A DNA stretch of 64,000 nt from Candidatus Acetothermia bacterium (lineage in GTDB: Bacteria; Bipolaricaulota; Bipolaricaulia; RBG-16-55-9; DRXL01), in the NCBI GenBank assembly GCA_016179105.1, contig JACOSB010000160.1, positions 164 through 64,163 of the forward strand. The letters are read 5' to 3'. The notes under the pieces were generated by a model. The model did no database searches. It was not told the origin of the DNA and worked only from the letters and a program-made list of their open reading frames with translations. Shown piece after piece: positions 23,357-53,415 of this stretch (the stretch's first letter is position 1; every line of letters starts with the position of its first letter). A program made the translations under genes and the position numbers.

Positions 23357-24136
23357 CTAAATCTCATATCGTTCAACGATCTTTTTCTCGCCCGTGCCGT
23401 CGCCGATGATCTCGACGTGAATCTCAAAATACTCTGCGATGCCTGAATTTTTGAGCTTGGGTTTGAGCAGATTATCGACCTGAAAAATGCCCGCCGAGTT
23501 GGCCATCTCGATCTCGATGCAGACCGGCTTTTTCTCACCGGGTTTCAATTTCACGTTCGCGATCGCGAGCGCCGAGACGGCGTGAATCGTCGCTGTGCCC
23601 GCTTTGAACGGGATGCGCGCGCGGCCCTCTTCCATGTCGAGCGCGTCGGCAATTTTCAGCACGCCGGCTTCGACGGTCATGGGCGGTATATCGGTGTCGT
23701 GCGCGTAGATGGCATGAAGGACTTCCGCCATCATGATCGCTTTCTCACGTTCTTGATAAATTCCCTCGAGCACGCCAGGAAGCATATCGAGCGCGATCGA
23801 GACCGAGAAGGGTTCGTGATGAATGCGATGCACGATATGCCCAATGTCGTGAAAGCACGCGGCGAGCACGACGATCACTTCGGCATCGTCTTTGCTCATC
23901 TGATGGTCCTTCTCGACGCTGGTTTGGATGCCCTTCTCCATGAGCATGCGCAGAATTTTTAGGGCGATGTTGCTCACGATGCGAATGTGCACCGGCCCGT
24001 GATCGTTGATGCCCAGGCGGTTGATCGCGTTCACATTGCAGCAGTACCAAAAGGTGTTGAGCTTTACGCTCTCGTCGATGCGCTTCACGATCGCCGCGAG
24101 TTTTTCGTTTTGTTTGACGGGAACATTCAACGGCAT
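23357..24136 (-). CDS. HD-domain metal-dependent phosphohydrolase
   Basis: H..H ... CFHDIGHIVHRIHHE ... D motifs of the HD superfamily. It sits 12 nt downstream of the NMNAT gene in the same operon. Confidence 0.7.
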   Translation of the reverse strand: MPLNVPVKQNEKLAAIVKRIDESVKLNTFWYCCNVNAINRLGINDHGPVHIRIVSNIALKILRMLMEKGIQTSVEKDHQMSKDDAEVIVVLAACFHDIGHIVHRIHHEPFSVSIALDMLPGVLEGIYQEREKAIMMAEVLHAIYAHDTDIPPMTVEAGVLKIADALDMEEGRARIPFKAGTATIHAVSALAIANVKLKPGEKKPVCIEIEMANSAGIFQVDNLLKPKLKNSGIAEYFEIHVEIIGDGTGEKKIVERYEI

Positions 24137-24148
24137 AGCATGAACTCC

Positions 24149-24682
24149 TTAGGGTTGCTTGTCGGTCTTGGCGATCTGGCGCAGGCGCTCGATCCCGTCG
24201 ATCTCGTCCAATACTGCGGCGACGGTCGTGGGCACGAATTTTTTCCATTCCTCGCCTTGGAGCATCAGCTCGCGAATTTTCGTTCCTTCGTAACGGTCGC
24301 GTTGGACGAAGGGCAAAGGTCTTACTTCAAATCCCGCTTCAGAAAAGAGTTCTTGCACCAGCGTATTGTTCGAGTAAACGATCTCAAACGGAGGAGTCAG
24401 CGAACGGATGTGCGCCACATAGAGCGAGTTTCTTTCAATGTCTTCGATGGGCAAAACATAGGTGGTCATCTTGGTTCCGGCGAGCGCTTTCGTGATCATC
24501 ATGATGCGTTCGCCGGCCGTGAACGGGTCTCTCAATGTGTGACTCCACTGAGCCGAGCCGACGGCGATCACCAGTTCGTCTACGTCGTCGCTCTGCACGA
24601 TATGGTCGATGAGCGCTTGATGGCCGTTGTGATAGGGCTGAAAGCGCCCAAGAAAGAGCGCGCGACAGACGTTGGTGCTCAC
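24149..24682 (-). CDS. nadM: Archaeal-type nicotinamide-nucleotide adenylyltransferase (NadM family)
   Basis: LFLGRFQPYHNGH (the (H/T)xGH nucleotidyltransferase motif in its archaeal GRFQPFHKGH form), AVGSAQ.SHT..PFTAGER and a C-terminal IERLRQIAKTD. Confidence 0.85.
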   Translation of the reverse strand: MSTNVCRALFLGRFQPYHNGHQALIDHIVQSDDVDELVIAVGSAQWSHTLRDPFTAGERIMMITKALAGTKMTTYVLPIEDIERNSLYVAHIRSLTPPFEIVYSNNTLVQELFSEAGFEVRPLPFVQRDRYEGTKIRELMLQGEEWKKFVPTTVAAVLDEIDGIERLRQIAKTDKQP

Positions 24683-24933
24683 GCGCGGGCACCCCCGGCG
24701 AGCGCTTGGCGGATGCGTTCTTTGATGAGATCGGGTTTGGGCAAAACGCCTTCCATCGCGAAAATTTTCTGGTCATTCAAAGATACATCGAAAACGCCCT
24801 CGTGCCCCGGCAGCAGTGTGAGCGAGTCGATCTGCTCAGGATGTTCTTCGAGCAAAGCCCGAACGAGCTCCAGGGCGCGGGGCAAATACATGCACTCAAC
24901 ACAGTATTCGATCGTGATGCATGCCCGTTTCAT
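24679..24933 (-). CDS. Rdx/SelW/SelT-family thioredoxin-fold protein (CxxC variant)
   Basis: 84 aa with ITIEYCVECMYL near the N-terminus, the Rdx CxxU/CxxC position. It is translationally coupled to nadM (ATGA overlap). Confidence 0.55.
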   Translation of the reverse strand: MKRACITIEYCVECMYLPRALELVRALLEEHPEQIDSLTLLPGHEGVFDVSLNDQKIFAMEGVLPKPDLIKERIRQALAGGARA

Positions 24934-25060
24934 ATGCGGCTCATTCTAGCACTCGCTGCACTGGGGTACAACTGAGTGTAGGCGCAGTTCGCGAACCGCC
25001 TCCGCGACGGTGGCCGAACTTCCTGTGCAGGGTTATAATTCACATCAAGGAGGAATCGAA

Positions 25061-25588
25061 ATGCTTAAATTCGGAGATGTCGCGCCAGAGTTCAACTTGC
25101 CCGGTGTCGAAGGAAAAAATCATAAACTTGCGGACCACAAAAGCAAGAAAGCCGTCGCTGTCATTTTTAGTTGCAACCATTGTCCCTACGTGAAAGCGTT
25201 CGAAGATCGGATGATCGCGCTCGCACGCGACTATGCTCCCAAGAGCGTGCAATTCTTGCTCATCAACGCCAACGATCCCGTAAAATACCCGAGCGACAGC
25301 TTTGAGCAGATGGCTGTCCACGCCAAAGAAAAGAACTACCCATTCCCGTACCTGCACGATGCGTCTCAACAAATCGCGAAAGCTTATGGCGCTCAGCGCA
25401 CACCCGAAGTTTTTTTGTTTGATAACAGCTTCAAGCTGCGCTATCGCGGGACGATTGACGACAGCGTAGACGACCCAAATAAAGTGACCAAGCGCTATCT
25501 GAAAGACGCGCTCGACGCCGTCGTGGCGGGCAGAGAGCCGGCAACGAAAGAGACAGCGCCGGTGGGTTGCACGATCAAATGGAAGTGA
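25061..25588 (+). CDS. Thioredoxin-fold thiol-disulfide oxidoreductase (redoxin/AhpC-TSA family)
   Basis: RBS AAGGAGG then ATG. ...AVAVIFSCNHCPYV has a CxxC motif. A TATAAT -10 lies at 25034-25039. Confidence 0.8.
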   Translation: MLKFGDVAPEFNLPGVEGKNHKLADHKSKKAVAVIFSCNHCPYVKAFEDRMIALARDYAPKSVQFLLINANDPVKYPSDSFEQMAVHAKEKNYPFPYLHDASQQIAKAYGAQRTPEVFLFDNSFKLRYRGTIDDSVDDPNKVTKRYLKDALDAVVAGREPATKETAPVGCTIKWK

Positions 25589-25615
25589 GCGCGAGTCAAT
25601 CTAACAACGTCTAAC

Positions 25616-25667
25616 GAAACCGCCAAGTCGCCAAGGACGCCAAGAAAAATCTATGGTTCCTCTGCGC
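25616..25667 (+). repeat. Family B dispersed repeat, copy 2
   Basis: gaaaCCGCCAAGtCGCCAAGGaCGCCAAGAAAAATCTaTGGttcCTCTGCGc lies between the convergent trx-like and pyrF genes. Confidence 0.7.
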
Positions 25668-25685
25668 TCTTTACAGTGAGTTTCG

Positions 25686-26540
25686 TTAAGTGTTCTTACG
25701 ATATTGATTGATCCGAGCGCGCCAGTGCTCCGCGCGTCGGCGGGCGGCTTGCACGAAATCTTTTTCGCTCGACGCGAAGATCACATCGCGCGAGACGTTG
25801 ACGAGCAGTCGTGCTTTGTTTGCGCCCATCCCGTTTTTCACAGACTGTTCGAGATCTCCGGATTGGGCACCGATCCCCGGCAAGAGAATCGGCATCTCGT
25901 TGCCAATAGTTTTGCGGATGATGCCTAGCTCGCGCGGGGCCGTTGCTCCGACGACGAGTCCAATGTTCTGATCTTTGTTCCACTCGCGCGCGCTCTCCGC
26001 CAAATGCTGATAGAGCGGTTTGCCTTCACAATTCAGTTCTTGGAAATCGCGTGCGCCGGGATTGGATGTGCGACACAGTAGAAAGATCAGTTTGTCAGAA
26101 TATCTTAAGTATGGCGCGAGCGAGTCATAGCCCATGAGCGGGTTCACTGTTGCTGAATCAAACTGATAAAACTCGAAGAGTGCCTTGGCATACTGGCGCG
26201 CTGTGTTCTCTAAATCTCCGCGCTTGGCATCGGCGAGCGTGATGATTTCTTTGGGGATGTATTCGCGTGTCTTTTGTAGCTCTTCCAGGCCCGCCGGGCC
26301 GAGCGCTTCGTAAAACGCCAAGTTCGGCTTGTACGCGCAGACTAGATCTGCCGTTGCGTCAATAATTTGCTTATTGAACTCAAAGAGCGCGTTGACGCCG
26401 TATTTCCCTACGAGAAAGCGCGGCAGCTTTTCGTACTCTGGATCGAGCCCGATGCAGAGCAAGCTCTGGTTGGATGCACAAACAGCGTCTAGTTTTGCGA
26501 TGAATTTCACAATGGCTCTAGAAGATCTCTCTGAGAGCAA
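25686..26540 (-). CDS. pyrF: Orotidine-5'-phosphate decarboxylase, type 2 (long form)
   Basis: LLCIGLDPE..., KPNLAFYEALG and TLADAKRGDLENTA match type-2 PyrF. Confidence 0.85.
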   Translation of the reverse strand: MLSERSSRAIVKFIAKLDAVCASNQSLLCIGLDPEYEKLPRFLVGKYGVNALFEFNKQIIDATADLVCAYKPNLAFYEALGPAGLEELQKTREYIPKEIITLADAKRGDLENTARQYAKALFEFYQFDSATVNPLMGYDSLAPYLRYSDKLIFLLCRTSNPGARDFQELNCEGKPLYQHLAESAREWNKDQNIGLVVGATAPRELGIIRKTIGNEMPILLPGIGAQSGDLEQSVKNGMGANKARLLVNVSRDVIFASSEKDFVQAARRRAEHWRARINQYRKNT

Positions 26541-27081
26541 TCTGCAGGCCTACTAGGAGAGGCGAGATCAGAGTTTCGTTCTTTTTATAAAACCCGGCAC
26601 GCTCGTATCTTTTTCGTCCCAACATCAAGACTTCGATCGTCTCATCCTCCGGGTCCACCATCCAGTATTCTTTCACCCCGTGCTTGGCATAGAGTCTGCG
26701 CTTGTAATTTTTGTCTTTTTCTTTTGTAGAAGGCGAGAGAATTTCGATCGCTAGATCGGGTGCGCCATGCACCGCATCTTCGCGAATGATCCGACGTTGC
26801 GCCTTCGAGATAAAAAGAATATCAGGTTCGGCCACTTCTTCTTCCCCTGGTGGGCCAAGTACGACGTCAAAAGGAGCTACGTAAATATGACCCAAGCTAT
26901 GCTCCCGCACATAACGCATTAACAAAAAAGCAAGCGCTATTAAAATCCTCTGGTGTGCTTCATTCGGCGAGGTCATTCGAATCAACTCCCCATCCAACAG
27001 CTCGTAGCGCACACCCTCGACGTAGGGCAGGCTCTTGTAGTCCTCATATGTGAATTTAATTCTCGTATGAGCTTTCGCCAT
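26518..27081 (-). CDS. Uma2-family (DUF820) putative restriction-endonuclease-like protein
   Basis: ...YELLDGELIRMTSPNEAHQRI...PDLAIEILSPST...D...KRRLYAKHGVKEYWMVDPEDETIEVL carries the PD-(D/E)xK-like Uma2 signature. Confidence 0.8.
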   Translation of the reverse strand: MAKAHTRIKFTYEDYKSLPYVEGVRYELLDGELIRMTSPNEAHQRILIALAFLLMRYVREHSLGHIYVAPFDVVLGPPGEEEVAEPDILFISKAQRRIIREDAVHGAPDLAIEILSPSTKEKDKNYKRRLYAKHGVKEYWMVDPEDETIEVLMLGRKRYERAGFYKKNETLISPLLVGLQIALREIF

Positions 27082-27141
27082 CTATCATTCACCCTGCTGC
27101 TATCCTACCCTTGCTCGCCGGATTCGTCAACCCTAAAATCC

Positions 27142-27564
27142 TCAACGCGTGACCAAATAGATCGCGAGCACCGCGCAGACAAGACCGAGCACGCGTGTGA
27201 TTGTGAGAGTTTCTCCGAGCAAGACGACGCTCATAAGACTGGAGACAACGATAAAAAGCCCGTAGATGGGCACGACGATGGAAACCGGCCCCGCACCAAT
27301 CGCCAAGTAGTACGCGATAATGCTGATCCCCAGAAAGATTCCCGCCCCGACCAACAGCCAAATAGGCTTGGCCGTGAGATAGGGCATGATCGACTTGCCT
27401 TGAAATTTTGCCCAGCTGAAGGCCATTAGAGCGAGAATCGAGTTAGTGATGACGACCGCGACTTCGGGTGGTATTTGTCTGGTCGCGAGCTTGACCAAAG
27501 GCGCGACCATCGCATAGCAGACGAGTGCTACGACTGAGAGAGCAACGTAGTTCATAAAAATCAC
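27142..27564 (-). CDS. Small EamA/DMT-family membrane transporter
   Basis: 140 aa with four predicted TM helices, with an EamA-like half-transporter topology. Confidence 0.55.
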   Translation of the reverse strand: MIFMNYVALSVVALVCYAMVAPLVKLATRQIPPEVAVVITNSILALMAFSWAKFQGKSIMPYLTAKPIWLLVGAGIFLGISIIAYYLAIGAGPVSIVVPIYGLFIVVSSLMSVVLLGETLTITRVLGLVCAVLAIYLVTR

Positions 27565-27705
27565 TCCTATGAGAGATCACTCTAGCTGATGCGAGCCCGA
27601 TCGGACAACTATGTCTAGCGTGCGCGAAGCCGATACAGCGTGTATAACAGTTCTCTCTGAGTACTGCGTGATCTCTGCGGTTTATTCAGTTATGCTTAAC
27701 TTCAT

Positions 27706-28293
27706 ATGCGCACCTTCGTCATCCTCGCTCATAAAGCCCCGCTCACACACGAATTTAGCTTGAATGACTTGCCCGGCGGCGCGGGCCGCATCGATGTGCT
27801 CTGCCGCTGCGTGACCGCAAGTTTTTGCCTCTCTCACGGCATCCGCAAAGACGTACAAGTCTATCTCGTTTTTCAGAATCAGCTCGTCGTTCGCTTGCAC
27901 GGAGAAACTCTAAGACACCTAAACCCCGACGAACGCTCGACGGCTGCACTTTTGCAGAAAGCCCTCAAAGCCCAGTCCGAATGCGTCGGCGAGCAAGAAG
28001 TCCAGAGCACCTCTGGAATCTTTGTCTCGAGACGCGGACTGCCCCAACTGCTCGAACAACTCCAATCGCAAAATACTAAAATCATCCAACTGCACGAAGC
28101 CGGAGCGCCTTTGCGCAATACTGTGTTGCCAACCAACTGCGCCTTCCTCTTGAGCGACCATTTAGAGTTCGACCCCGCAGAAGACGCTCTCCTCAGCCAA
28201 GCGCTCCGTCTCAATCTGGGTCCGAAGAGCCTCCACGCTGACCACTGCATCACGATCGTGCACAACGAACTCGACTTGCGGGAGATCAACTAG
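27706..28293 (+). CDS. trmY: TrmY-like SPOUT methyltransferase (DUF358; tRNA pseudouridine-54 N1-methyltransferase family, archaeal type)
   Basis: FVILAHKAPLTHEFSLNDLPGGAGRIDVLCRCVTASFCLSHGIRKDVQVYLVF matches the TrmY/DUF358 N-terminal signature. Confidence 0.65.
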   Translation: MRTFVILAHKAPLTHEFSLNDLPGGAGRIDVLCRCVTASFCLSHGIRKDVQVYLVFQNQLVVRLHGETLRHLNPDERSTAALLQKALKAQSECVGEQEVQSTSGIFVSRRGLPQLLEQLQSQNTKIIQLHEAGAPLRNTVLPTNCAFLLSDHLEFDPAEDALLSQALRLNLGPKSLHADHCITIVHNELDLREIN

Positions 28294-28408
28294 CGCGATC
28301 TAGGGAGATTTTCCCATTCTTGCTGTATGTTAATCACCTAGTTAATATGAATAAAAACTTATTGTGGCAAAAACGCTGTCAGGAACGATTATTAATAGCG
28401 ATTGCCTC

Positions 28409-28437
28409 TTGACAAAAGCAGACTCTTTTAGTATGCT
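28409..28437 (+). promoter_or_regulatory. Sigma-70 promoter (TTGACA -17 nt- TATGCT) for the ZIP transporter. An AT-rich imperfect palindrome CGATTATTAATAGCG 20 nt upstream is a candidate metalloregulator (Zur-like) operator.
   Basis: Consensus -35 at 28409-28414 and -10 at 28432-28437. The palindrome is at 28386-28400. Confidence 0.5.
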
Positions 28438-28479
28438 TTTACGACCGCCGAGAAAATAATCGATCACTGCGGGAGGATC

Positions 28480-29319
28480 ATGTCATTCTCACAGTTGTTG
28501 TTGGTCGGGGCGATTGCTGGGTTCACGGTCTATTTGGGGTTGCCGGTCGCGGCCTTGCGTCGCACGGGGCTACGCACGCGGGGCGTACTCAACGGCATTG
28601 CCACGGGCATTCTCGTTTATTTAATGATTGAAATCCTCAAAAGCCCCTTGGGTTTTGGTGAAGATGCTCTGGAACATGCCATCGGGAAATCAAGCACGGA
28701 CTTGCTCTTGCTATTTTCGGTATTAGTCGGCGGTGTGACCCTGGGTTTAGTAGGCATTCCGATCTTAGAACGCTGGATGTTGCGCCAGTGGGCTCGGTCG
28801 CCGAGGCCGCTAGGGATCGTCGCCCAGACGGTGACGGCTCCCTCACGGGAACGCGCAAAAGAACTCCAGCCCTTCGTGCTCGCTCTGATGATCTCGGCGG
28901 GCATCGGTCTGCACAACTTCAGCGAGGGGCTGGCTATCGGGCAGCAGGCCACGCTCGGACATATGTCGCTCGCCTGGGCTCTGATAATCGGCTTTGCCCT
29001 TCACAACATCACCGAAGGGTTTGGCATAGCTGCTCCGTTGGCTGGAACGCGCCCTTCGCTCGGCTTTCTCGCACTGGCGGGTTTGATCGCGGGTGGGCCG
29101 ACCTTCTTAGGCACGGTCGTCGGAGCGAGCTGGCAATCCCCATTAGCTTCGATTGCGTTTCTCGCACTGGCGGGCGGGGCCTTGCTCTACGTCATCTCCG
29201 AGCTGCTGCGCCTGGGCCACGCCATGCTCGCCAAAGTCCCCTTCATGCTGAGCCTATCGTTGGGATTTTTTATCGGTTATTTTACGGAATTGGTGCTCGA
29301 GCGCGTACTTGGGGGCTGA
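28480..29319 (+). CDS. ZIP-family divalent metal transporter (ZupT-like)
   Basis: 8 TM segments. GLHNFSEGLAIG and ALHNITEGFGIAAPL are the ZIP signature motifs. Confidence 0.85.
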   Translation: MSFSQLLLVGAIAGFTVYLGLPVAALRRTGLRTRGVLNGIATGILVYLMIEILKSPLGFGEDALEHAIGKSSTDLLLLFSVLVGGVTLGLVGIPILERWMLRQWARSPRPLGIVAQTVTAPSRERAKELQPFVLALMISAGIGLHNFSEGLAIGQQATLGHMSLAWALIIGFALHNITEGFGIAAPLAGTRPSLGFLALAGLIAGGPTFLGTVVGASWQSPLASIAFLALAGGALLYVISELLRLGHAMLAKVPFMLSLSLGFFIGYFTELVLERVLGG

Positions 29320-29404
29320 ACAATCCAGCACGCACTGCTGACAGTGCTACGGCAATCCCCGATCGCTCTCAATCGAAGCTGAAATACTTGGAGGAGGAGT
29401 CAGG

Positions 29405-29905
29405 ATGATTAAGAAGACTCGTCGTCAAACGTTACAACTCGCAGGCGCAGCTTTGCTAGGGGGACTCGCGACCTCAACGCTCGGCCCTTCGCCGTCTGCG
29501 CTCGCTCAACAAGCCCCCGGCCTTGAGCCCTGGGAGGCCTATATTGACGAGAAACTCGAGATCGAGATGGGCACGAATTATTTTCAAGTAAAAGGGCAGG
29601 AGAAGAACGCTCCGATCACTCTCAAGGTGGGCAAGATCTATTTGTTGGAGTTCGCGAACGTCGACAAAGGCGTGATCGGCAGAGGCGTTCCGCATAACGC
29701 GCTCTTCGGCAAAGACCCCGATTTGTCCAAGCGCTTTTATAAAACTCTTTTGATTGACAACGTCTTCGGGATTGACCTGGAGGGGGGACAAGAAGGAGAA
29801 TTCGCTTTCCGTGTGCCCGACAAGCCCGGCGAATGGGAGATGGGCAGCTTCGTCACCGGCCAGTACGAAGCGGGCATGAAGATCACTCTTATCATCAAAA
29901 AGTAA
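29405..29905 (+). CDS. Tat-secreted small periplasmic protein with a cupredoxin-like C-terminus that lacks the canonical Cu ligands
   Basis: Twin-arginine motif TRRQTLQLAGAALLGG. ...GEWEMGSFVTGQYEAGMKITLIIKK resembles a cupredoxin C-terminal strand, but no Cys or His ligands are present. Confidence 0.5.
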   Translation: MIKKTRRQTLQLAGAALLGGLATSTLGPSPSALAQQAPGLEPWEAYIDEKLEIEMGTNYFQVKGQEKNAPITLKVGKIYLLEFANVDKGVIGRGVPHNALFGKDPDLSKRFYKTLLIDNVFGIDLEGGQEGEFAFRVPDKPGEWEMGSFVTGQYEAGMKITLIIKK

Positions 29906-29923
29906 ATAAATCCTGTTTCATCG

Positions 29924-30397
29924 TCATCCAAGCAGAGAGAACAAAGCAGGCAGGAAATTGTGTGCCATATGGATGAACGTCGTCACAAGAAGGGCTTCGA
30001 ACAATCCATACTCGAACCAAGCCATAAAAGCCCTGGACATGACATAGAAAGACCATACCACCAGAAGCCCCCAAGGAGCCCAGGCCAATGAGTGCAACAT
30101 CGCCCACACGATCGCTGAAGCAATCGCCAAACCATGAACGTCCTTTATCACATAAGAAGCTAATCCTAGCAGCAATGCGAGAATCAGAGTCTCTACCAAA
30201 GGGCCTATCGTCACCGCCAGCAGAGCGGCTGTGAAGTCATGATCTGGAATGGCTCGGAAGTTGGTGGCGAAGAGGCTAGGAATTAATAAAGACAAGAGAA
30301 ATCCGATAATTATTGTTGGAATGAACGAAAGAACCCACATGCGCAGCACATACCTCCACATGGGCCACGAAGGCTTGAAGAACATTTTTCTGCCCAC
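29924..30397 (-). CDS. CPBP-family (CAAX protease / Abi-like) intramembrane protease homolog
   Basis: Polytopic membrane protein. FIHMAHNFLPALF resembles CPBP motif 3 (HxxxN). Confidence is limited. Confidence 0.4.
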   Translation of the reverse strand: MGRKMFFKPSWPMWRYVLRMWVLSFIPTIIIGFLLSLLIPSLFATNFRAIPDHDFTAALLAVTIGPLVETLILALLLGLASYVIKDVHGLAIASAIVWAMLHSLAWAPWGLLVVWSFYVMSRAFMAWFEYGLFEALLVTTFIHMAHNFLPALFSLLG

Positions 30398-30546
30398 CCT
30401 TTTATCTTAGTTTGCTGTCTGTTTTAAGCTGCTCTGGACAGCGAGCGAGATCCCTTGCTGTCGCTCAGGCAGTATATAGTTCCCTCCGATGAGCCATTTT
30501 GTTGATAAGCTGCCCTGTCTCTTTTATCTATCACACGAGCTTGTTT

Positions 30547-31128
30547 TTATTTCGCGACCGGTATCATCACATGCTGATAGGGCGTGCCCTTCCACATGAC
30601 CCATGGACCGCCATTGTTTAGGTCTGCAGTCATCTCCGCCAGCGCCACTGGATCGGGACTGATCCACATCACATGCGGTGGAAGAATCAACCACTGCTCA
30701 CCCGGTCCGGGGGCTGTCTTGAACGGGTCAGTGTTGCTTGCATCGGCTCCACCTTGCAGCATGTATCCGATGCCGGGGACCTTGGTGCTGAACGGCTTCT
30801 TCTCAGCCCAGGCTTGGAACCAAGCCTGCCAAACTTGGTCAAGACAGATAGGATCATTCGCGGGCGTTCCTGGGTCATCGGGGTAGCAGACCCAGCCGTT
30901 CGTGCCCGCGCGCAGCTGCTTCGGCTGAGCCCCCGCGGAGGCAGGCAAGTCCAGGATTGTGGCATTCTTGGAAATGGCCATAGGAGCTGCACTCATGGCA
31001 TTTTGAATCTTTTGCTCATCGGTCATGTTCCCCGTGGGTGGTGTCAGTCCGGTGCAACTCATCGCAACAACGAGTAAAACGGTCAGAGCCATCCCTAAGC
31101 CGAAAAACTTGAGTGTGGTTGTACGCAT
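30547..31128 (-). CDS. Putative lipoprotein, function unknown
   Basis: RBS AGGAGGGG 7 nt before ATG (MRTTTLKFFGLGMALTVLLVVAMSC). Lipobox-like VAMSC. The longer 31155 start was rejected. Confidence 0.55.
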   Translation of the reverse strand: MRTTTLKFFGLGMALTVLLVVAMSCTGLTPPTGNMTDEQKIQNAMSAAPMAISKNATILDLPASAGAQPKQLRAGTNGWVCYPDDPGTPANDPICLDQVWQAWFQAWAEKKPFSTKVPGIGYMLQGGADASNTDPFKTAPGPGEQWLILPPHVMWISPDPVALAEMTADLNNGGPWVMWKGTPYQHVMIPVAK

Positions 31129-31266
31129 TGTGACTCCCCTCCTATACTGATTCAAATTTAACTAAATTTCTTCGGCTCTATCAAGGTCCGATGATTCACT
31201 ATTTGACTTCTTAAACTACGTCCTCATAATAGTTCTAGCGAACTCTGTATTTATGGGAGAATCTCG

Positions 31267-34200
31267 ATGGCTGACCAATTTGAGAATCCTGACTCACATT
31301 CAAACTCTGATGAGCTGACAGCTCTACGACAGCAGGCCGAGCAATACGCAGCACAATTGCAAATCATCAATAGCATTCAACAAGGGCTTGCAAGCAAACT
31401 GGATATACAAGCCATTTATGATCTGGTTGGCGACAAGGTCTGCGAGATCTTCGATGCCCACGTGGTTCAAATTCTCTCATACGATCCGGCAGCGAATCTC
31501 ATGCATTACCCGTATTGTAATGAAATGGGCGACCGACATTCACACGACCCACGTCTGCCCGGCGGCTTTTCAGGCCACATACTCCAGACGCGCCAACCAC
31601 TCATGATCAACCAGAACCTGGTGGCGCGTTCAGCGGAACTCGGGAAAACCGTACCGTTATCCGGAGACTGGCCTAAATCTTATCTGGGGGTTCCTTTGCT
31701 CGTGGGTGATGAAGTTCGCGGTGTTCTCACTCTCCAAATCTTAGACCGCGAGAACGGCTTCAACGAATCTGACCTGCGCCTGCTTCAGACGCTCGCCAGT
31801 AGCATGAGCATGGCGCTCGAAAACGCGCGTCTCTTTGATGAAGTGCAAAATCGAAATGATGAGATCACTGATGCGTTAGAGCGAGAAACTGCAACGAGCG
31901 ATATTCTCAAAGTGATCGCCAACTCGCCCACCTACATTCAGCCTGTGCTCGATGTGATCGCTGAGCATTCGGCACGGTTATGTGCATCGGACGACGCTGT
32001 CATCGTGCTGGTGGAAGACAACTTTTTGAGGGTGTCCGCCCATTACGGCAGTATCCCCATCACACAAGTGGGTGAAGGGATTCCGTTGGATAAAGAGACT
32101 GTCGTCGGGCGAGCGATCCTGGAGGGTGGAACCTTTCAAACGATCCATGGCCAGAACGAGGCCGCACCCGACTATCCGGCCGGCGACGCAAACGCAAAAA
32201 AATTCGGCTATCGCATGACGTTCTCGACCCCGCTGATGCGGCAAGGCAAGGCAATCGGCGGCATCACCATTCGCCACATCGAACCAAAGCTACTGAGCGA
32301 TAAACAAGTCGAACTGGTCAAGACCTTTGCCGATCAAGCGGCCATTGCTGTCGAGAATGTGCGGCTCTTCAACGAGACCAAAGAAGCACTCGAACAACAG
32401 ACCGCTACGAGCGAAGTGCTCCGTGCCCTGAGTAGCTCTCAAACGGACTTGAAGTCTTTGTTGGAAGTCATTGCCGTGAACGCGGCTAAGGTCTGTGGCG
32501 CCGATGATGCTCACATCTACCGCGTTGAGGGCAACATGCTCAAAGAATGGACACACCGCGGGCCAATTCCAGGGTTAGAGGCGGGCGAATCCTTACCGCT
32601 CAACCGCAAGTCGTTGACGGGCCGCGCGATCGTGGATCGGCAAACTATCCATATCCACGATGCGGCTGCAGAATTGAACGAGGCCGAGTATCCGATCAGT
32701 GCCGCTCTTCAGCGACGATGGGGCACTCGGACGGTGCTATCTATTCCATTGCTCCGCGATGGAGAGCCGATCGGGGGCATTGCCATTCGCCGCAAAGTGG
32801 TGCAACCGTTTACGGAGAAGCAGATTGAGTTGCTCAAATCCTTCGCCGATCAGGCTGTGATTGCGATTGAGAATGTGCGTCTTTTTGATGAGACTCAGCG
32901 TCTGCTCAAAGACACTCAACAACACGCCGCCGAGCTCGCCATTATCAACAGCGTGCAAGAAGGGTTGGCGTCTAAGCTAGATTTCGAGGCAATCATTGAT
33001 CTCGTGGGTGACAAGATTCGTGAAATATTCGATGCGCAGAGCGTGGCCATTGGCAGGTACGATCACGTGAATGGTCTGGTCAACTATAGTTATGTGGTCC
33101 AAAAAGGACACCGAGTGCAATGGAGTCCGTCGCCTTTTGCGGGTATGAGCCATCATATGATTAACACTCGACGGACATTGGTCATCAATGAAAATGTTGC
33201 TCAACGAATGAAAGAAATTGGTGCCATCTTCCCAGATGAGTTTGATCTGCCGCGCTCTACAGTGTATGTACCGCTGCTTGTGGGAGAAACGATCACGGGT
33301 GTGATTAATATCGCTAATCTGGATCGCGAGCACGCCTTTAGCGAATCCGATGTGCGCCTGCTCCAAACGCTCGCCAACAGCATGAGCGTGGCGCTCGAAA
33401 ACGCGAGGCTCTTTAATGAGACTCAACAACGCAACGCCGAGCTTGCCATCCTCAACAGCGTGAGCGAAGCCATGTCGAAGACGCTCGATGTCAAGACCGT
33501 GACGAAGATCGTGGGCGACAAGGTGCAAAGTATCTTTGCCTCAGAAGCCGTGAGCATCCGCTTATATGATCCCGCCACCAACCTCATTCAGCGCGCCTAT
33601 GATTATGACCGCGGTTATGAAGACCTGACTGATACCTCGTTTCCCATGGGCCAAGGGCTGACCTCGAAAATCATCCTTTCCGGCAAGCCGCTCATGTTTG
33701 GCACAGAACAGGAATCATACAGCGCTGGCTCACTGAATGTGCCTTCCCAGAAGGGCGACGAAGCGACGCAATCCTATCTTGGCGTTCCCATTATCGTCAA
33801 TGATAAAGTGATAGGCACCGTTTCCATTCAAAGTTATAAACAACACGCCTATAACGAAAATCACTTGCGCCTCCTGCAAACGCTCTCGTCCAACATGGGC
33901 GTCGCCATCCAGAATGCACGTCTCTTTGAAGCCGAGAAGCAGCGCGCCGCTGAACTTGCGATCATCAACAGTGTGCAAGCAGGACTCGCGTCAAAACTCG
34001 ATATGCAAGCGATTTACGATTTGGTGGGCGACAAGATTCGCGAGATCTTCGACGCACAGGTAGTAACCATTCTCTCTTACGACCACACCAGCAATCTCTT
34101 GCACTTTCGCTACTCGATCGAAAAAGGCGAACGGCAAACCGCTGAACCTTCACCGCTCGGCAAAGGATTTGCCTCCCATATTTTTAGGACACGCGAGCCG

Positions 34201-37200
34201 TTGCTCATCAATCAAGATATTGAAAAGCGGCGCGCTGAATTTGGCGCGGTTGTCCCCATGGGCTCTCCTGCCAAATCCTATCTCGGCGTTCCTTTGATCG
34301 TCGGTGATGAAGCCAAAGCCGTCATCACCTTGCAAAACATTGATCGCGAGAACGCTTTCACCGAATCCGACCTGCGTCTCTTACAGACACTCGCCAACAG
34401 CATGAGCGTCGCCCTCGAAAACGCCCGTCTCTTCGACGAGACTCAGCGCCTGCTCAAAGAGACCGAACAGCGCAACGCGGAACTGGCAGTCATTAACAGT
34501 GTCCAAACTGCGCTCGCCGCTGAACTCAACATGCAAGGCATCTACGACGCGGTAGGCGACAAGATCCGTGAGATATTCAATCAGGCAGATATCAACATCC
34601 GTATCTATGACCCCAAGACAAATCTAGTTCACTATCCATACGCATACGAAAATGGGAAACGCATCGCGATTGATTCGCGCCCGTTACGCGAAACCGGCTT
34701 CAATGCTCATGTCCTCCGCACCCGCGAGACATTGGTCATCAACGAGAACATGGCGCAAGAAATAGTAAAGTATGGCAGCTCCATCATCCTAGGCACACAA
34801 CTGGAAAAATCGGCTATGTATGTGCCGCTCGTGGCAGGCGATCAAGCGCGCGGGTTAATTGAAATCGGCGATTATCAACGCGAACACGTCTTTAGCGAAT
34901 CAGATGTCCGTCTCCTGCAAACCCTCGCCACTGCAATGAGCGTCGCGCTGGAAAACGCACGTCTGTTCGATGAGACTCAGCGCCTGCTCAAAGAGACCGA
35001 ACAGCGCGCTGCCGAACTCGCCATCATCAACAGCGTGCAAGAAGGACTCGCATCAAAGCTCGATATGCAGGCGATTTACGATTTGGTGGGCGACAAGATT
35101 CGCGAGATTTTCGACGCACAAGCGGTAACGATCGCCACCTTTGATCTCGAAAAAGAGATGGGTTATCAGCGCTATAGCATCGAAAAGGGTCAGCGCTTTT
35201 ACTCCGAGCCGGCACGATACGGTAATATTGCCAAGCAACTGATCGCCACTCGCCAGCCCGTGCTTTACCAAACCCGCCAGCAACTCATCGCAACGGGTGT
35301 CGGCGTCGCTCCTGGGACGGAGCCATCCAAGTCCGCCGTGTATGTGCCGCTCGTCGTCGGCGATGTGGTGAAGGGCGCGATAAGTTTGCAAAACGTTGAT
35401 CGCGAGTACGCGTTCACCGAATCGGATGTGCGCCTATTACAAACCTTTGCCAACAGCATGAGCGTCGCCCTCGAAAACGCACGGCTCTTCGACGAGACCC
35501 AGCGCCGAGCGCAGGAAATGTCAGCACTGATCGAAGTAGGTCGTGACATCTCGGCAACGCTCGATCCGACGACAGTCTTGGAACGCATCGCACGTCACGC
35601 ACGCGATCTTTTGCAGGTCAGTGATTGTGCCGTCTTCTTACCCGATGAAACGGGGCAGGCGATGAAGGCCTTCGTCGCGCTTGGACCCATCGCTGCGCAA
35701 ATCAAAGCGATGACGATTCAATTCGGCGCGGGCATTATCGGCAGCATCTGGAAGACGGGAGCCGCCGAAGTCATCAACGATGCGAGCCAAGATCCGCGCG
35801 GCGTAAAGATCGCTGGGACTGAGGATAAATCTGATGAAAAACTGATGGTCGCGCCGTTGTTATCGGGTGATAAAGTGATCGGCTTAATGTCGGTCTGGAG
35901 ATCGGGCGGCGATCGTTTTTTCGAGGACGATCTAATATTCTTGATGGGCTTGGCTCGCCAAGCTACCATCGCCATTCAGAATGCACGTCTCTTCAATGAA
36001 ATCCAGGCGCGCAACCGTGACATCACCGAAGCCTTGGAACAACAAACCGCAACCAGCGAAATCCTGCGCGTCATCGCCAGTTCTCCGACAGACGTGCAAC
36101 CCGTGCTCGAAACGGTTGCGCGGCACGCAGTGAAACTGTGTGATGCGGTATTTTGCGGCGTGTATCGAGTGCAGAACGGAATAGTTTCTCTCGGGGCACA
36201 GTACAATTTGACGCCGGAGGTGGTTGAAGAACTCAACCGCGTACTGCCTGCACCGATCGAGAGCGCACCTAGTATCTCTGCTGAAGCGGTGCGTCGCCAA
36301 ACAATCATTCACATTGCAGACATCGAAAACGAACCCACCGTACCCTCGTGGACGCTTCGAGTCGCGCGGAAGCTAGGGTATAAGAGCATTGTTGCCATCC
36401 CAATGTTGCGGGAGGGTGAGGTCCTCGGTGCCATCACGGTCGCCAGACGCGAAGCAGGGAATTTCACGGATAAACAGATCGCTCTCCTGCAAACCTTCAC
36501 CAATCAAGCGGTCATCGCCATCGAAAATATACGACTATTCAATGAGGTGAAGAACCAGAGACAATTCTTGGAAGCAGTGATCGCCAACAGCCCTGCTGCG
36601 ATTGCGCTCATCGGAAGAGATGCAATAATCAGGGGATGGAATCTGGCTGCTGAAAAATTGTTCGGTTATACCGAAACAGAAGCCCTCGGCCGCAATATTG
36701 ACGATCTGATCGCCTATAGAGAAGAGGTGCGTTTCGAAGCCCTTCACTATACGAATCAAGCCCTCACCGAGAACCGATTCCATATTATCACGAAGCGTGT
36801 CCGTAGAGATGGTAGCTTCGTCGATGTGGAAATATCGGTCTTGCCCATCAACCCTGCCAATCTGAACGAGGGATTTGTTGTTATCTATCACGACATCACC
36901 GAACTCCAGCGCGCGCGCCAAGAAGCGATCGCGGCCAATGAAGCGAAGAGCGCCTTCTTGGCAACGATGAGCCACGAGATTCGCACTCCGATGAACGCCG
37001 TCATCGGAATGAGCGGCCTACTGATGGACACTGATCTCACCCGAGAACAGCACGAGTATGCCGAGACAATCCGCAACTCCAGCGATACGCTTTTAACTAT
37101 CATCAATGATATATTGGACTTCAGCAAGATCGAGGCCGGGAAGATGGAATTGGAGCATCAGCCCTTCGATGTGCGCGAGTGCGTTGAGTCGGCACTGGAC

Positions 37201-38517
37201 TTGGTCGCGGGGCGCGCCGTCGAGCGCGGACTCGATCTGGCGTATCTGATTGATGACGAGGTGCCCAGCGTCGTGCGCGGCGATGTCACGCGCGTGCGTC
37301 AGATTTTGCTCAACTTACTGAGCAACGGAATCAAGTTCACTGATCATGGCGAAGTAGTCGTTGAAGTGAAGCGCGGACAAGCTGCCAATGAGTTGCTCTT
37401 CTCGGTGCGCGATACCGGCATCGGCATCTCACCCGAGGGCATGAAGCGGCTCTTCCAGTCTTTTAGTCAAGCCGACTCGTCGACGACGCGCAAATACGGT
37501 GGTACGGGCTTAGGCTTGGCCATCAGCCGAAAACTTGCGGACATGATGGGCGGTACGATGTGGGCCGAGAGCAAGGGTGTGCCGGGCAAAGGGTCTACTT
37601 TCTTCTTCACGATTAAAGCAGAGGTGGCAAAGTCAATTGTGAGTAAATCGGTGCGCAATCTGAGCAGCCTGCAGCCCGAAGTCGAGGGCAAGCGCATTCT
37701 CATTGTGGACGACAACGCGACCAACGGTCGCATCTTGGAAATACAGACGAAGAAGTGGGGCATGACTCCACGAGTGGCAAAATCGCCCAAGCAAGCGCTC
37801 AAGATTGTGAAGACGAAGAAAAAATTTGATCTGGCAATTTTGGATATGCACATGCCCGAGATGGACGGCATGGCGCTCGCGAAAGCGCTGCGAAAATTGC
37901 CCAGTGCCAAGAAATTGCCTTTGATCTTACTCACGTCGTTGGGGCGTCAAGGAACCAAAGAAAAAGTTTCAGCATTTGCAGCGTATCTCACCAAGCCGGT
38001 CAAGCCCTCACAACTCTTTGATGCGCTGGCGAGCGTTTTTGCTGGCGCGAAAACCAAGCAGCGTAAAGCAACTTTATCAAAGATTAAGACAGCGAAACAA
38101 AAATTCGATCCAAAGATTGCCAAGCGGCATCCTTTGCGGATCTTGCTCGCCGAAGACAACGTCGTCAACCAGAAAGTCGCGCTGCGCATTTTGGATCAGA
38201 TGGGCTATCGTGCCGATGTGGCGTCGAATGGTCTGGAAGCGATCGAAGCCGTCGAGCGTCAGCATTATGATGTGATCTTGATGGACGTGCAGATGCCCGA
38301 AATGGATGGGCTTGAAGCGACGCGGCGCATTGTCGCACGCTGGAGTAAAAAGAAGCGTCCGCACATCGTCGCGATGACGGCAAATGCGATGCAGGGCGAC
38401 CGCGAGATGTGCCTCGCTGCGGGCATGAATGATTACATCACCAAGCCCATTCGAGTCGATGAACTAATCGGCGCTCTGAACAACGTCACTCCCCAAAAGA
38501 GGAGAAATAATTTATGA
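31267..38517 (+). CDS. Giant hybrid sensor histidine kinase with 10 tandem GAF domains, a PAS domain, HisKA, HATPase_c and two receiver domains
   Basis: 2416 aa. Ten GAF units are each bounded by L(E/Q)NARLF(D/N)E(T/V)Q linkers. HisKA: [23 protein letters not shown]. HATPase: [15 protein letters not shown]...[13 protein letters not shown]1: [10 protein letters not shown]...[13 protein letters not shown]2: [10 protein letters not shown]...[11 protein letters not shown]. Confidence 0.9.
31363..35520 (+). repeat. Intragenic array of near-identical ~150-200-nt repeats (GAF linker plus GAF N-terminus) with a ~0.6-kb period
   Basis: gagactcagcgcctgctcaaagagaccgaacagcg...atcatcaacag(c/t)gtgcaag...ctcgatatgcaagcgatttacgatttggtgggcgacaagattcgcgagat recurs at ~32880, 33960, 34440 and 34975 with over 85% identity. 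Confidence 0.8.
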
Positions 38518-38867
38518 GCGACAGTGCTATAGATTTATCTGTGTTTAACAATCTGAAAGAGATGGTCGGCGAGGATTTTATCGGCGAGCTGATTGATACG
38601 TTTCTTGACGAGGCTCCGCAATTGATTGCTTCGATGCAAAAAGCTCTTCCTAAAAATGATGTTGAGACGTTTCGCCGATCGGCTCATTCGCTTAAATCCA
38701 ACAGCGCGAGTTTTGGCGCGCACGCTTTATCCGACCAAGCCAAGGCGCTAGAAATGCTAGGACGAGCGGGCCAACTAAGCCAAGTCGGGGATAAGCTTGA
38801 GACTCTATCGGCTGAGTACAAAAAAGTAGAAGAAGTCTTGAAGAGATTGCGCCATGACTTCGAATAA
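38514..38867 (+). CDS. Histidine phosphotransfer (Hpt) protein
   Basis: 117 aa. FRRSAHSLKSNSASFGA is the Hpt phospho-His motif. The start overlaps the kinase stop (ATGA). Confidence 0.8.
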   Translation: MSDSAIDLSVFNNLKEMVGEDFIGELIDTFLDEAPQLIASMQKALPKNDVETFRRSAHSLKSNSASFGAHALSDQAKALEMLGRAGQLSQVGDKLETLSAEYKKVEEVLKRLRHDFE

Positions 38868-39909
38868 GATGCACGGGCCGGGACGATTATTAGTCGTCGA
38901 AGACAACAAGGTCAATCGCATTTTGCTTCTGCGCGGGCTGGAGCAACAGGGGCACGTGGTGACGGCTGTTGAAAACGGAAAACAAGCGTTGAAGCTCTTA
39001 CACAGCCAGCCTTTTGACATCGTTTTATTAGATATTGAGATGCCCGAAATGAATGGGTTCCAAGTCTTGGAAACGTGTCTGCAAGACACGCACCTGCGCG
39101 AGATCCCGATTATTATGACGTCGGCGATGGACGAGCTGGACAGCGTCGTCAAGTGCATTGAGATGGGAGCCGAAGACTATCTCACAAAGCCACTTAATAC
39201 AGTCTTGCTCCGGGCGCGAGTCAACGCGAGCCTTGAAAAGAAACGGTTGCGCGATCAGCAGCGCAAGCTCTTTGATACAGTAGCGACCAGCGAAGTCGCT
39301 GAAGAATTGATCAGCAAAGGATTTTCATTGGGCGGCAAACACGTGGACGCTTCGGTCATGTTCACGGACATTCGCTCTTTCACTTCGATTGCCGAATCGC
39401 AAGACCCCTCGGAGACAATGGAGTTGCTCAACACTTACTTTACGTTGATGTTCGAGCCCATCAAAGATCATGGTGGAATCGTCAACCAAATTGTCGGTGA
39501 TGAGATCATGGCCATTTTCGGTGCCCCGATTCCACGAGTCGATCATCGCGAGCAAGCGGTCTTTGCGGCGATCGAGATGCTCGAATTGTTAAAAGGCTTT
39601 AATCAAGAACAAGCGTTGCGCAATAGAGTACAAATTCAGATCGGTGTGGGGATTGCATCGGGTAGAGTTATTGCGGGATACACAGGTACCCAACAGCGCG
39701 CGATTTTCACTTGCATAGGGGATACGGTGAATGTGGCTTCGCGTATACAAGACCATACCAAAATTATTGGCCAGCCTCTTCTCATAAGCGAGAACACTCA
39801 GCAAAGCTTGCCCACGGCGCTTCACACCGAGCTATTGGACTCAATAGTCTTTAAGGGAAAGAGCCAACCCGTCTCAGTCTATAGCGTCAAGACGGAACCG
39901 GCGGATTAA
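38854..39909 (+). CDS. Response regulator with an N-terminal receiver domain and a C-terminal class III nucleotidyl cyclase (adenylate/guanylate cyclase, CHD) domain
   Basis: REC: LLVVEDNKVNR...LLDIEMPEMNG...KPL. Cyclase: VMFTDIRSFTSIAE...IVGDEIMAIFGAP...GIASGRVIAGYTG. It overlaps the Hpt gene by 14 nt. Confidence 0.85.
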   Translation: MTSNKMHGPGRLLVVEDNKVNRILLLRGLEQQGHVVTAVENGKQALKLLHSQPFDIVLLDIEMPEMNGFQVLETCLQDTHLREIPIIMTSAMDELDSVVKCIEMGAEDYLTKPLNTVLLRARVNASLEKKRLRDQQRKLFDTVATSEVAEELISKGFSLGGKHVDASVMFTDIRSFTSIAESQDPSETMELLNTYFTLMFEPIKDHGGIVNQIVGDEIMAIFGAPIPRVDHREQAVFAAIEMLELLKGFNQEQALRNRVQIQIGVGIASGRVIAGYTGTQQRAIFTCIGDTVNVASRIQDHTKIIGQPLLISENTQQSLPTALHTELLDSIVFKGKSQPVSVYSVKTEPAD

Positions 39910-40292
39910 CGCAAACTGACTGGCAAGTCGTGAGCAGAGGAGTGCGTTCCTCGATCGAAGGGTTCTTCGGGGAATTCCTCAAACGTCGCATCAAAGACTT
40001 TGACAAGTATTTCCGCAGTGCCCGCTACAAATTACGACGTGTGAAAGAATGGGTGAGAGTTTTTTTCTTGGTTCCACAAGCACTTTCGTTCAGGCGGTGC
40101 TCCCTTCTCTATTTGAACCGGCCCCTCCGTTGTGGGTCGAAATCACCGCTGGCAAGCGAACCAGAAAGATACATGCCGACAAAATGGTTCCCGAGAATAG
40201 TGCGCACTCCTGATAGTAATAGGTGCAGTATGGTATTGAGGTCGGGGTAAGGCGTAGGCTGAGTAACGCGAGCTGACACTGAGCCTCCCCTG

Positions 40293-41462
40293 CTAAGCTG
40301 CCCTCCTCACCGCGAGCGAAATCCCGTTCCCGCCGCCCATGCAGATCGTCGCGAGCCCTAACTCTGCGCCGCGATCCTTCATCGCCCAGACGAGCGTGCC
40401 GACAATGCGCGCTCCGCTGCAACCAATGGGGTGCCCGAGCGCGATCGCGCCACCGTTCACATTAACACGATCCCAGTCCCACTCCAGCTCCTTGCCATCT
40501 GCAAGCGTCTGTGATGCGAACGCTTCGTTCACTTCAATCAGATCAAACGCATTCACGTTGACCTTCATCTTGGCCATGAGTTTTCTCGTCGACTCAACCG
40601 GAGCATAGAAGAGATCGATCGGTGCGGTGCCTGCGACAGCGTAATCGACGATCGTCGCCAAGGGCTTATAGCCGCGCTTCTTCGCTTCTTCTTTGGAGCA
40701 AATCAAGAGTGCCGCAGCTCCATCATTCAACCCCGGCGCGTTGCCCGCTGTGACCGTGCTCCCATCTTTGAACGCGGGCTTCAGCTTGGCCAACTTTTCG
40801 ATCGTCGTATCCAGGCGCGGCGTCTCGTCTTGCTCGATGGGTCCGTCTTGAGCTTGCAAGGGAATCAGCTCGTTCTTAAATTTCCCATTTTGAATCGCTT
40901 TCACGGCCTTCATGTGGCTCTGATAGGCAAAACGATCCTGCTCCTCGCGCGAGATTTTAGACTTAGTGGCTGTGTACTCGGCGGCATCACCCATGATCTT
41001 CCCATCGAATGACGACCAGAGCCCATCGATTACGATCGAGTCCACTAATTTTTGGTCGCCGTATTTAAGCCCAGAACGAGCACCCTTGAGTAAATAGGGC
41101 GCATTGCTCATGCTCTCCATGCCCGCCGCGATGACTATCTTCGCGTCGCCGGCTTTGATTGCTTGGGCTGCGAGCAAGATCGCTTTCATGCCCGAGCCGC
41201 AAACTTTGTTCACAGTAAGGGCTGGTACAGACGGAGAGATTCCACCTTTGATGCTCGCTTGACGCGCCGGGGCCTGACCGACGCCCGCCTGGACAACGTT
41301 CCCGATTATGACTTCGTCCACTTCGTCGCCCTTTAAGCTATTTCTGTCTTTAATGGCTTTGATCGCCGCTGCGCCCAAATCCGTTGCGCTGAATTGCGCA
41401 AGTTTTCCCTGAAATCGTCCCATCGGCGTGCGCACGGCATCGACAATCACCACTTCAGCCAT
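40293..41462 (-). CDS. Acetyl-CoA C-acetyltransferase (thiolase II)
   Basis: [13 protein letters not shown]..., [11 protein letters not shown] (active-site Cys) and a C-terminal [11 protein letters not shown]...CMGGGNG. Confidence 0.9.
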
Positions 41463-53413: not shown

Positions 53414-53415
53414 AA

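Follow-up and report, generated by a model that had tools for sequence, protein, structure and literature searches.

The locus described here raises the question of how a very long string of apparent input domains may be coupled to the synthesis of a cyclic nucleotide. It is found in a 64,000-nucleotide (nt) stretch of DNA, referred to below as the window, which is part of a contig of 65,957 nt (JACOSB010000160.1) in a metagenome-assembled genome (MAG) labelled Candidatus Acetothermia bacterium (GCA_016179105.1). Here, three open reading frames (ORFs) on the forward strand encode a hybrid histidine kinase (31267-38517), an Hpt phosphotransfer protein (38514-38867) and a response regulator composed of a receiver (REC) and a class III nucleotide cyclase (38854-39909). 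We consider it likely that these three genes make up an operon on the chromosome that serves a multistep phosphorelay in the cytoplasm, and this judgement applies to the explanation as a whole, i.e., to the phosphorelay and a modular GAF array taken together. An earlier interpretation made from the DNA letters alone (the sequence-only reading) had arrived at a similar relay, and the present analysis retains its main outline while revising much of what it said about repeats and about the cyclase product.

The kinase is a single polypeptide of 2416 amino acids (aa) in which the ORF and the Pfam matches agree on the composition claimed earlier, i.e., ten GAF domains followed by a PAS domain, HisKA, HATPase_c and two receivers, REC1 and REC2. 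The Hpt protein (117 aa, PF01627, E=4.2e-18) and the response regulator (351 aa, Pfam E=6e-28 for the receiver and 2e-25 for Guanylate_cyc) were likewise supported by domain search. The start codon of the Hpt gene overlaps the stop codon of the kinase gene (ATGA) and is preceded by an AGAGGAG Shine-Dalgarno sequence, and the Hpt and REC-cyclase ORFs share 14 nt, which bears out the translational coupling that had been proposed. In the NCBI records the three proteins, MBI1744780.1 (the kinase) to MBI1744782.1, have generic names.

The full set of residues expected in a relay of the His-Asp-His-Asp type is present. Following the PAS domain (36565-36897, aa 1767-1877), the kinase core (36943-37620) comprises HisKA (aa 1893-1958, E=4.5e-22), with the phosphorylatable histidine H1903 in the motif SHEIRTP, and HATPase_c (aa 2005-2118, E=1.9e-29), where the N, G1, F and G2 boxes are all located, including GGTGLGL. 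The two receivers (37690-38478) have phosphorylation pockets that can be read in the translation as DD...D2193...TS...K in REC1 (aa 2142-2254) and ED...D2340...T...K in REC2 (aa 2292-2404). The Hpt protein carries His58 within an HSLKSNS motif, and the receiver of the response regulator (aa 13-123) carries D60. The kinase is devoid of hydrophobic or transmembrane segments, the maximum Kyte-Doolittle mean over 19 aa being 1.48, and it is therefore predicted to be cytoplasmic and soluble. Together with the catalytic residues of the cyclase (see below), these observations support, at the level of sequence, the proposed His-Asp-His-Asp route to a class III cyclase.

According to the mechanism that we propose, the soluble kinase, presumably a dimer, would autophosphorylate on H1903, from where the phosphoryl group would be passed to a receiver of the same protein, most likely to D2340 of REC2, then to His58 of the stand-alone Hpt protein and finally to D60 of the REC-cyclase. 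This order, i.e., from the kinase to a REC, to Hpt and to the terminal REC, is suggested by the adjacency, the translational coupling and the conserved synteny of the genes. Phosphorylation of D60 would alter the activity of the homodimeric class III cyclase, and the product, a 3',5'-cyclic nucleotide, would act on CAP-type receptors encoded elsewhere. Kinase activity would be set by the N-terminal array of ten GAFs and one PAS, in which single continuous helices of ~53 residues that join the GAF cores may form a helical-spine rod relaying conformational changes to the DHp domain. The units of the array would be duplicated, lost and replaced in frame through recombination within the connectors between the cores.

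The gene order is kept in ~20 orthologous loci, in which a kinase core with two receivers, an Hpt and a REC-cyclase are adjacent. The hosts are Anaerolineales/Chloroflexia, Burkholderiales, and Rokubacteria/Methylomirabilota and Deltaproteobacteria-labelled MAGs, and the orthologous kinase cores score 640-750 bits against that of the window. In every orthologous locus with enough sequence, the Hpt domain is found either between the kinase and the cyclase or fused to the kinase; in four loci (L009, L010, L011 and L019, from Rokubacteria/Methylomirabilota and Deltaproteobacteria-labelled hosts) it is carried by the hybrid kinase itself, at the C-terminus. GAF units in these loci were counted with a local hidden Markov model built from the ten units of the window, a comparison that had been suggested in the sequence-only reading. 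At least 12 units are present in both L003 and L004, exactly 12 in L012 and at least 11 in L168, where an additional partial unit lies at the edge of the locus, followed by 8 units in L005, 7 in L008 as well as L018, 6 in L007, 5 in L023, 2 in L010 and a single unit in L011. In the closest module, L164, the cyclase of which is 82% identical to that of the window, the kinase is 1405 aa long with 2 GAF and 4 PAS domains. The output cassette has been kept across phyla; the sensor array in front of it contains anything from 1 to at least 12 GAFs.

A search of the whole database with the kinase yielded 7602 proteins at E<=1e-50. The best 120 of these 7602 homologues contain 9-20 GAF units (median 14) and are 1584-4173 aa long, all of them at least 2417 aa except for the partial protein P0105; several are encoded on contigs of Mb size. 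Because there are thousands of homologues with long arrays, the ten-GAF kinase is an ordinary member of a very large, uncharacterised family.

The N-terminal 1758 aa of the kinase were divided into ten units, each 168-190 aa (504-570 nt) long, at a conserved end motif, [EQ]N[AVI]RLF. Based on the connectors, the units fall into three classes, all on the forward strand. Class A is composed of unit 1 (31267-31836, aa 1-190), the nearest relatives of which within the protein are units 6, 4 and 8, of units 4-7 (32887-34968; aa 541-716, 717-887, 888-1056 and 1057-1234) and of unit 8 (34969-35490, aa 1235-1408), which bears the exact linker string that was quoted previously. Units 2 and 3 (31837-32886; aa 191-368 and 369-540) belong to class B, which has an N-terminal helix of the type EQQTATSE(V/I)LR, and the kinase-proximal units 9 and 10 (35491-36540) are of class C and class B, respectively. 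The statement that all ten GAFs lie behind one conserved linker of ~55 aa is thus correct for units 1 and 4-8, but not for units 2, 3 and 10 (class B) or unit 9 (class C). Pairwise protein identity of the units is 36-65% inside class A and 21-38% across classes.

An AlphaFold2 model of units 7-8 and the helix that follows, calculated from an alignment of 18 sequences (mean pLDDT, the predicted local distance difference test score, of 83.5), displays two alpha/beta GAF cores with one unbroken helix of 53 residues between them (model residues 155-207). When this model was compared with the PDB using Foldseek, the best matches were PDE2A (3IBJ), PDE5A (3LFV) and CyaB2 (1YKD), with E ~1e-16. The modelled inter-core helix and the matches to tandem-GAF proteins therefore suggest that the "linker" of the sequence-only reading corresponds to the connecting helix of such proteins; inter-GAF coiled coils have been discussed previously (PMC1592074).

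At the DNA level, comparison of the kinase gene with itself (blastn) gave 16 off-diagonal matches. The best of these is a repeat of 131 nt at 89% identity between units 6 and 8 (33940-34070 and 35002-35132, 1062 nt apart), followed by repeats of 153, 166 and 235 nt at 82%, 80% and 77% identity, respectively, and the longest exact repeats are 38, 36 and 32 nt. The similarity is confined to the connector, a segment that runs from the final helix of a GAF through the linker into the first helices of the GAF that follows. Amino-acid identity of the connectors is 80-90% for the closest pairs of class A and 34-57% for pairs that include unit 5; the GAF cores are 21-54% (aa) and 36-56% (nt) identical among units. 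Several segments of 150-200 nt at more than 85% identity had been reported; one pair does exceed that identity but over 131 nt, and the others reach 77-82%. Nor is there a 0.6-kb period, the units being 0.50-0.55 kb long and the best copies 1.06 kb apart, and the description of long near-identical repeats was overstated because the similarity lies wholly in the connectors and the cores have diverged. Tandem Repeats Finder (TRF) returned four trivial short repeats and no long-period array, a result to be read with the maximum period of 500, which is below the unit length and makes the program blind to this array.

The suggestion that the repeats could drive variation in domain number is supported by comparison between and within lineages. 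Nearest-neighbour analysis revealed that units 1, 4, 6 and 8 of the window are each other's closest relatives (58-65% identity), which points to a lineage-specific expansion, and that units 5, 7 and 9 have counterparts in other phyla at 67%, 74% and 60% identity, respectively. Close pairs within one array are also found elsewhere, e.g., units 3/4 of L005 at 78% and units 4/5 of L018 at 91%. The latter pair lies in an ORF at 2309-9640 of a 246-kb contig, where two adjacent units (aa 1227-1397 and 1405-1570) share 91% protein identity, indicating a very recent tandem duplication in another lineage. Unit-by-unit matrices show units 9 and 10, those nearest the kinase core, at constant positions across orthologous arrays, and the class A units reshuffled.

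Within the species, a sister MAG (GCA_016201315.1) harbors the gene on two overlapping contigs, L083 and L001. Identity to the window is 99.5-100% over 21267-32866, and 100% over 31267-32766 and 35082-36500. Between these regions lies a strain-variable block (32870-35081, forward strand), in which the window has 1846 nt (units 4-7) and the sister instead has 1345 nt that encode three units; one of these three, S5, is 82% (aa) and 78% (nt) identical to unit 5, and the two others are without a counterpart in the window. The difference of 501 nt corresponds to exactly one unit, i.e., 9 GAFs in the sister versus 10 in the window. The left breakpoint directly follows a 20-nt intragenic repeat, ATCAACAGCGTGCAAGAAGG, which encodes INSVQEG, and the right breakpoint is located inside the connector before unit 8. 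These features support the interpretation that homologous recombination within the connectors has replaced a cassette in frame. The PAS domain lies in another, smaller patch that varies between the strains (36501-37000), where identity to the sister is 88%, with both flanks at 100%; here, contig L083 ends at window position 36518 and L001 starts at 36378. A scan of metagenomes with units 1-3 found no conspecific contig (best matches 57-77%) and hence no third allele. Outside the operon, the segment 42001-43500, which includes the OsmC and FMN-dehydrogenase genes, is 91-96% identical to the sister MAG amid surroundings of ~99.5-100%, and this patch suggests that mosaic recombination is general in the population.

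A number of observations weigh against the reading of the locus as a relay controlled by a modular array. The phosphotransfer partners are assigned from adjacency. Both strain alleles stem from short-read metagenome assemblies, and the synonymous-site support for gene conversion is just suggestive: at identical residues the same codon is used in 54% of cases in the connectors of the window and in 37% in the cores, modestly above a between-genome control of 44% and 36%, respectively (for units 6/8 the fraction is 74% versus 37% before that control). The substrate-specifying pair of the cyclase, Gln212/Thr286, matches neither Lys/Asp (ATP) nor Glu/Cys (GTP), and no gene for a cyclic-nucleotide (cNMP)-binding protein is found in the 64-kb window, where tblastn with the cNMP-binding protein of L164 returned nothing. 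As regards the GAFs, a pattern search for the cNMP-binding signature NKFDE found it in 0 of the 10 units, in which only Fx3D (FSESD or FTESD) is present. The Cys-His motif for bilin attachment is seen in none of the ten units and units 4-8 are without any Cys, which excludes covalent bilin binding. Sequence comparison of the GAF units with the PDB gave just one, weak match, 5W10 (E=1e-3 to 5e-7), and therefore no ligand is assignable to the GAFs. In addition, transmission of a signal across ten units is mechanistically doubtful, and many of the units may be structural.

The last point leads to the best-placed alternative, in which most GAFs are not separate inputs; instead, one or a few domains, probably units 9-10 and the PAS domain, would sense, and the remaining units would form a rod for dimerisation or spacing, or a scaffold for binding. 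In tandem GAFs (PDE2A, PDE5, CyaB2), which are those that the model of units 7-8 matches structurally, often one GAF binds the ligand and the other serves dimerisation. This precedent and the close relatives that manage with 2 GAFs make it quite possible that many units are structural, and the pattern of units 9 and 10 fixed beside the kinase across orthologues, with the distal class A units in flux, is also as expected if sensing were confined to the kinase-proximal end. However, orthologues of the distal units 5 and 7 occur in other phyla at 67-74% identity, implying that purifying selection acts on the cores of these two units; the cores of the array are strongly unlike each other, as expected for different specificities; and thousands of proteins retain arrays of 9-20 units. 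We regard this alternative as plausible, if still short of probable, beside a reading in which the array as a whole sets the activity of the kinase.

A further alternative concerns the output. In the cyclase domain (aa 165-343), alignment to the Synechocystis guanylate cyclase Cya2 (2W01), which is the closest solved catalytic domain (E=1e-27), and to OaPAC identifies the metal-binding residues D172 and D216 and the transition-state residues N293 and R297. These residues are kept in the orthologues, and the cyclase is very probably active. Inspection of the specificity residues, identified in the same alignments, led us to withdraw the earlier assignment of the product as cAMP or cGMP. The ATP rule is not obeyed, because Gln212 occupies the Lys position and Thr286 the Asp position, the latter in a class IIIb-like manner; nor is the GTP rule, which calls for Glu together with Cys, Gly or Ser, and Glu is found in 1 of 17 orthologues. 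As the Gln/Thr pair fits neither rule, the base of the product is not predictable from it. The pair is a family-wide signature, being found in 16 of 17 syntenic orthologues (the remaining one has Glu/Thr), and of the 125 closest cluster representatives 123 have Gln and 122 have Thr. Relatives of the REC-cyclase number at least 7999 at E<=1e-20.

Evidence that a cyclic nucleotide is made comes from three orthologous loci, L164, L018 and L006, in which a cNMP-binding gene directly follows the cyclase gene. In L164 this gene (11138-11566) encodes a stand-alone cNMP-binding domain of 142 aa; L018 harbors a stand-alone cNMP-binding domain (10990-11556) and a CRP-type regulator (12403-12975); and L006 has a fusion of a cNMP-binding domain with a SpoIIE phosphatase (2946-4244) and a CRP-type regulator (4229-4939). 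These CAP-type neighbours provide independent support for cyclic-nucleotide synthesis, but do not discriminate between products. It could thus be argued that the enzyme is not an adenylate cyclase and that its product is cGMP, the two purine cNMPs or some other cyclic nucleotide, given the Gln212/Thr286 pair in place of Lys/Asp, the Glu at the position equivalent to Q212 in Cya2, the Glu/Thr pair of one orthologue and the example of the mycobacterial enzyme Rv0386 (see below). On the other hand, class IIIb adenylate cyclases typically have Thr in place of the Asp, e.g., OaPAC, which aligns as Lys/Thr, and databases label the family as "adenylate cyclase", although by homology only. We consider a product other than cAMP alone possible but rather doubtful.

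The strain difference admits an explanation of another kind, i.e., that the contrast between 9 and 10 units reflects a chimeric join of co-occurring relatives and not a real recombinant allele. Both contigs originate from metagenomes of one project, the alignable part of the replaced block shows ~20% divergence, as expected of the orthologue from a second population, and there are further divergent patches between the assemblies. For such a join, however, the assembly would have to switch twice in frame and end up back in the gene that it had left, and the exact sequence shared at the left junction is only ~20 nt; this length is below the final k-mers that we infer to be usual for metagenome assemblers, so that both junctions should be carried by real reads. 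Moreover, lineage-specific duplications and differences in unit count arise independently in many orthologues. We therefore think a chimeric join unlikely and retain cassette replacement as the preferred explanation of the block.

Finally, that the ten-unit array itself is an assembly artefact, i.e., a mis-assembled expansion or chimera of fewer GAF units, appears very improbable: the contig does come from a short-read metagenome assembly, three same-species sister assemblies hold only fragments of the gene and the sole other assembly that spans its middle disagrees there, but every unit has a unique core, a typical read is longer than both the best and the longest exact repeat, so that neither gives an assembler anything to merge or multiply, no stop codon interrupts the frame over 7.25 kb, units 1-3 and 8-10 with their junctions are confirmed at 100% by the sister assembly, and homologues with at least 12 units are found on contigs of 125 kb to 4 Mb. 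The hazard of assembly collapse that had been raised for this gene is largely dismissed on similar grounds, as the repeats are too short and too diverged and the breaks of the sister contigs, near ~32.7-32.9 kb and 36.4-36.5 kb, lie beside the strain-polymorphic blocks, away from the best repeats.

From these considerations a broader proposal may be formulated, in which the connectors are in-frame recombination sites through which GAF modules are duplicated, deleted and imported between strains, re-tuning a fixed output on population time scales, and in which the Gln/Thr cyclase clade has a substrate preference outside the Lys/Asp and Glu/Cys rules. We put this forward tentatively and do not expect all of it to hold. 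If true, the cassette exchange would be a clear case of in-frame domain shuffling within a species and a template for the engineering of modular sensors. Kinases with 10-20 GAFs are common among Chloroflexota-like and Burkholderiales genomes from soil and groundwater. The present locus offers a compact and complete pathway of sensor, Hpt and enzymatic output, small enough for reconstitution in vitro, two alleles that differ only in the middle cassettes and so amount to a natural experiment, and a cyclase clade with a specificity pair outside the ATP and GTP rules.

Upstream of the kinase gene, a GGGAGA Shine-Dalgarno sequence was found (31255-31260, forward strand), and a sigma-70-like promoter match, TTGACT-16-CATAAT (31203-31230, forward strand), lies 37 nt before the ATG. 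A promoter and terminator scan of the region gave site counts that were not above shuffle expectation; the match at 31203-31230 is the sole sensibly placed site, no better than chance, and is therefore a weak lead. An Rfam scan of 30000-41000 identified no riboswitch or other RNA family, either upstream or inside the genes. After the cyclase gene, an ORF at 39930-40250 (forward strand, 106 aa, GTG start) is Arg/Ser-rich, of low complexity and without a Pfam match. It is probably not a gene, which leaves a gap of ~380 nt before the convergent thiolase gene. The downstream neighbours, which encode a thiolase, a CN-hydrolase and OsmC, are on the other strand.

In the more distant flanks, the thiolase (40293-41462, reverse strand) and a fused 3-hydroxyacyl-CoA dehydrogenase/enoyl-CoA hydratase (58777-60747, forward strand) belong to fatty-acid beta-oxidation, and no link between these genes and the signalling operon was seen. 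A protein of 1024 aa with Laminin_G_3, GEVED and three DUF11 repeats (775-3849, forward strand) is probably secreted or exposed on the surface. The genome is labelled Candidatus Acetothermia and the window encodes an Omp85/POTRA outer-membrane assembly protein, similar to BamA/TamA (53203-55728, forward strand, 841 aa); the closest relatives of the signalling genes are found in Anaerolineales MAGs, and the taxonomic label and the type of cell envelope may deserve a check.

The relay shares its general layout, i.e., a HisKA/HATPase core, one or more receivers, an Hpt step and a terminal receiver, with ArcB, BarA, TorS and RcsC, with LuxQ-LuxU-LuxO and with yeast Sln1-Ypd1-Ssk1. In line with this layout, the best NCBIfam matches were TorS, BarA, ArcB and LuxQ for the kinase core and LuxU for the Hpt protein, although all scored far below the equivalog cut-offs and no model reached its cut-off for any of the three proteins. 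In these known relays the sensor is periplasmic or membrane-bound, whereas the kinase of the window is cytoplasmic with ten GAFs. The window system also differs from them in that its kinase has two receivers and the terminal regulator is a cyclase instead of a transcription factor.

Control of a class III cyclase by two-component phosphotransfer, with a GAF domain in the sensor part, is a feature in common with cyanobacterial CyaC. This protein from Spirulina/Anabaena, the subject of a 1999 paper by Kasahara and Ohmori (cited in PMC1183210), reportedly combines REC, GAF, histidine kinase, REC and cyclase in one polypeptide. Compared with CyaC and its single GAF, the window system is distributed over three genes and has an extra Hpt, ten GAFs and a Gln/Thr cyclase. 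Adenylate cyclase R of Dictyostelium also brings together a histidine kinase domain, two receivers and a class III cyclase (PMC3009899), but as a single protein with seven transmembrane helices, no GAF array and no separate Hpt.

With respect to the array, the tandem GAFs of PDE2A, PDE5A, PDE6 and CyaB2 (3IBJ, 3LFV, 1YKD) have cores joined by one long helix, as in the model described above. In contrast to these proteins, the window kinase has ten units instead of two, at 10-16% identity and without NKFDE, and its output is a kinase. Several GAFs in series before a histidine kinase are also found in cyanobacteriochromes and phytochromes, but the units of the window are without the Cys-His motif and the source is a non-phototrophic groundwater MAG. 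A literature search revealed no paper on non-photoreceptor poly-GAF kinases, and cyanobacteriochromes and phytochromes were the only proteins described there as having "multiple GAF" domains.

The cyclase domain differs from Cya2, its closest solved counterpart, by the Thr partner residue and by the fusion to a receiver. Among mycobacterial enzymes, Rv1900c is a non-canonical cyclase with an Asn/Asp pair, and Rv0386 of M. tuberculosis, also non-canonical with its Gln/Asn pair, is an adenylate cyclase that has guanylate cyclase activity as a side reaction. The latter shares the Gln at the Lys position with the cyclase of the window, but its partner residue is Asn instead of Thr. The locus is thus of a known kind, i.e., a multistep phosphorelay with an enzymatic response regulator, and the features that set it apart as an uncharacterised variant are the very long, actively reshuffled GAF arrays and the Gln/Thr cyclase clade.

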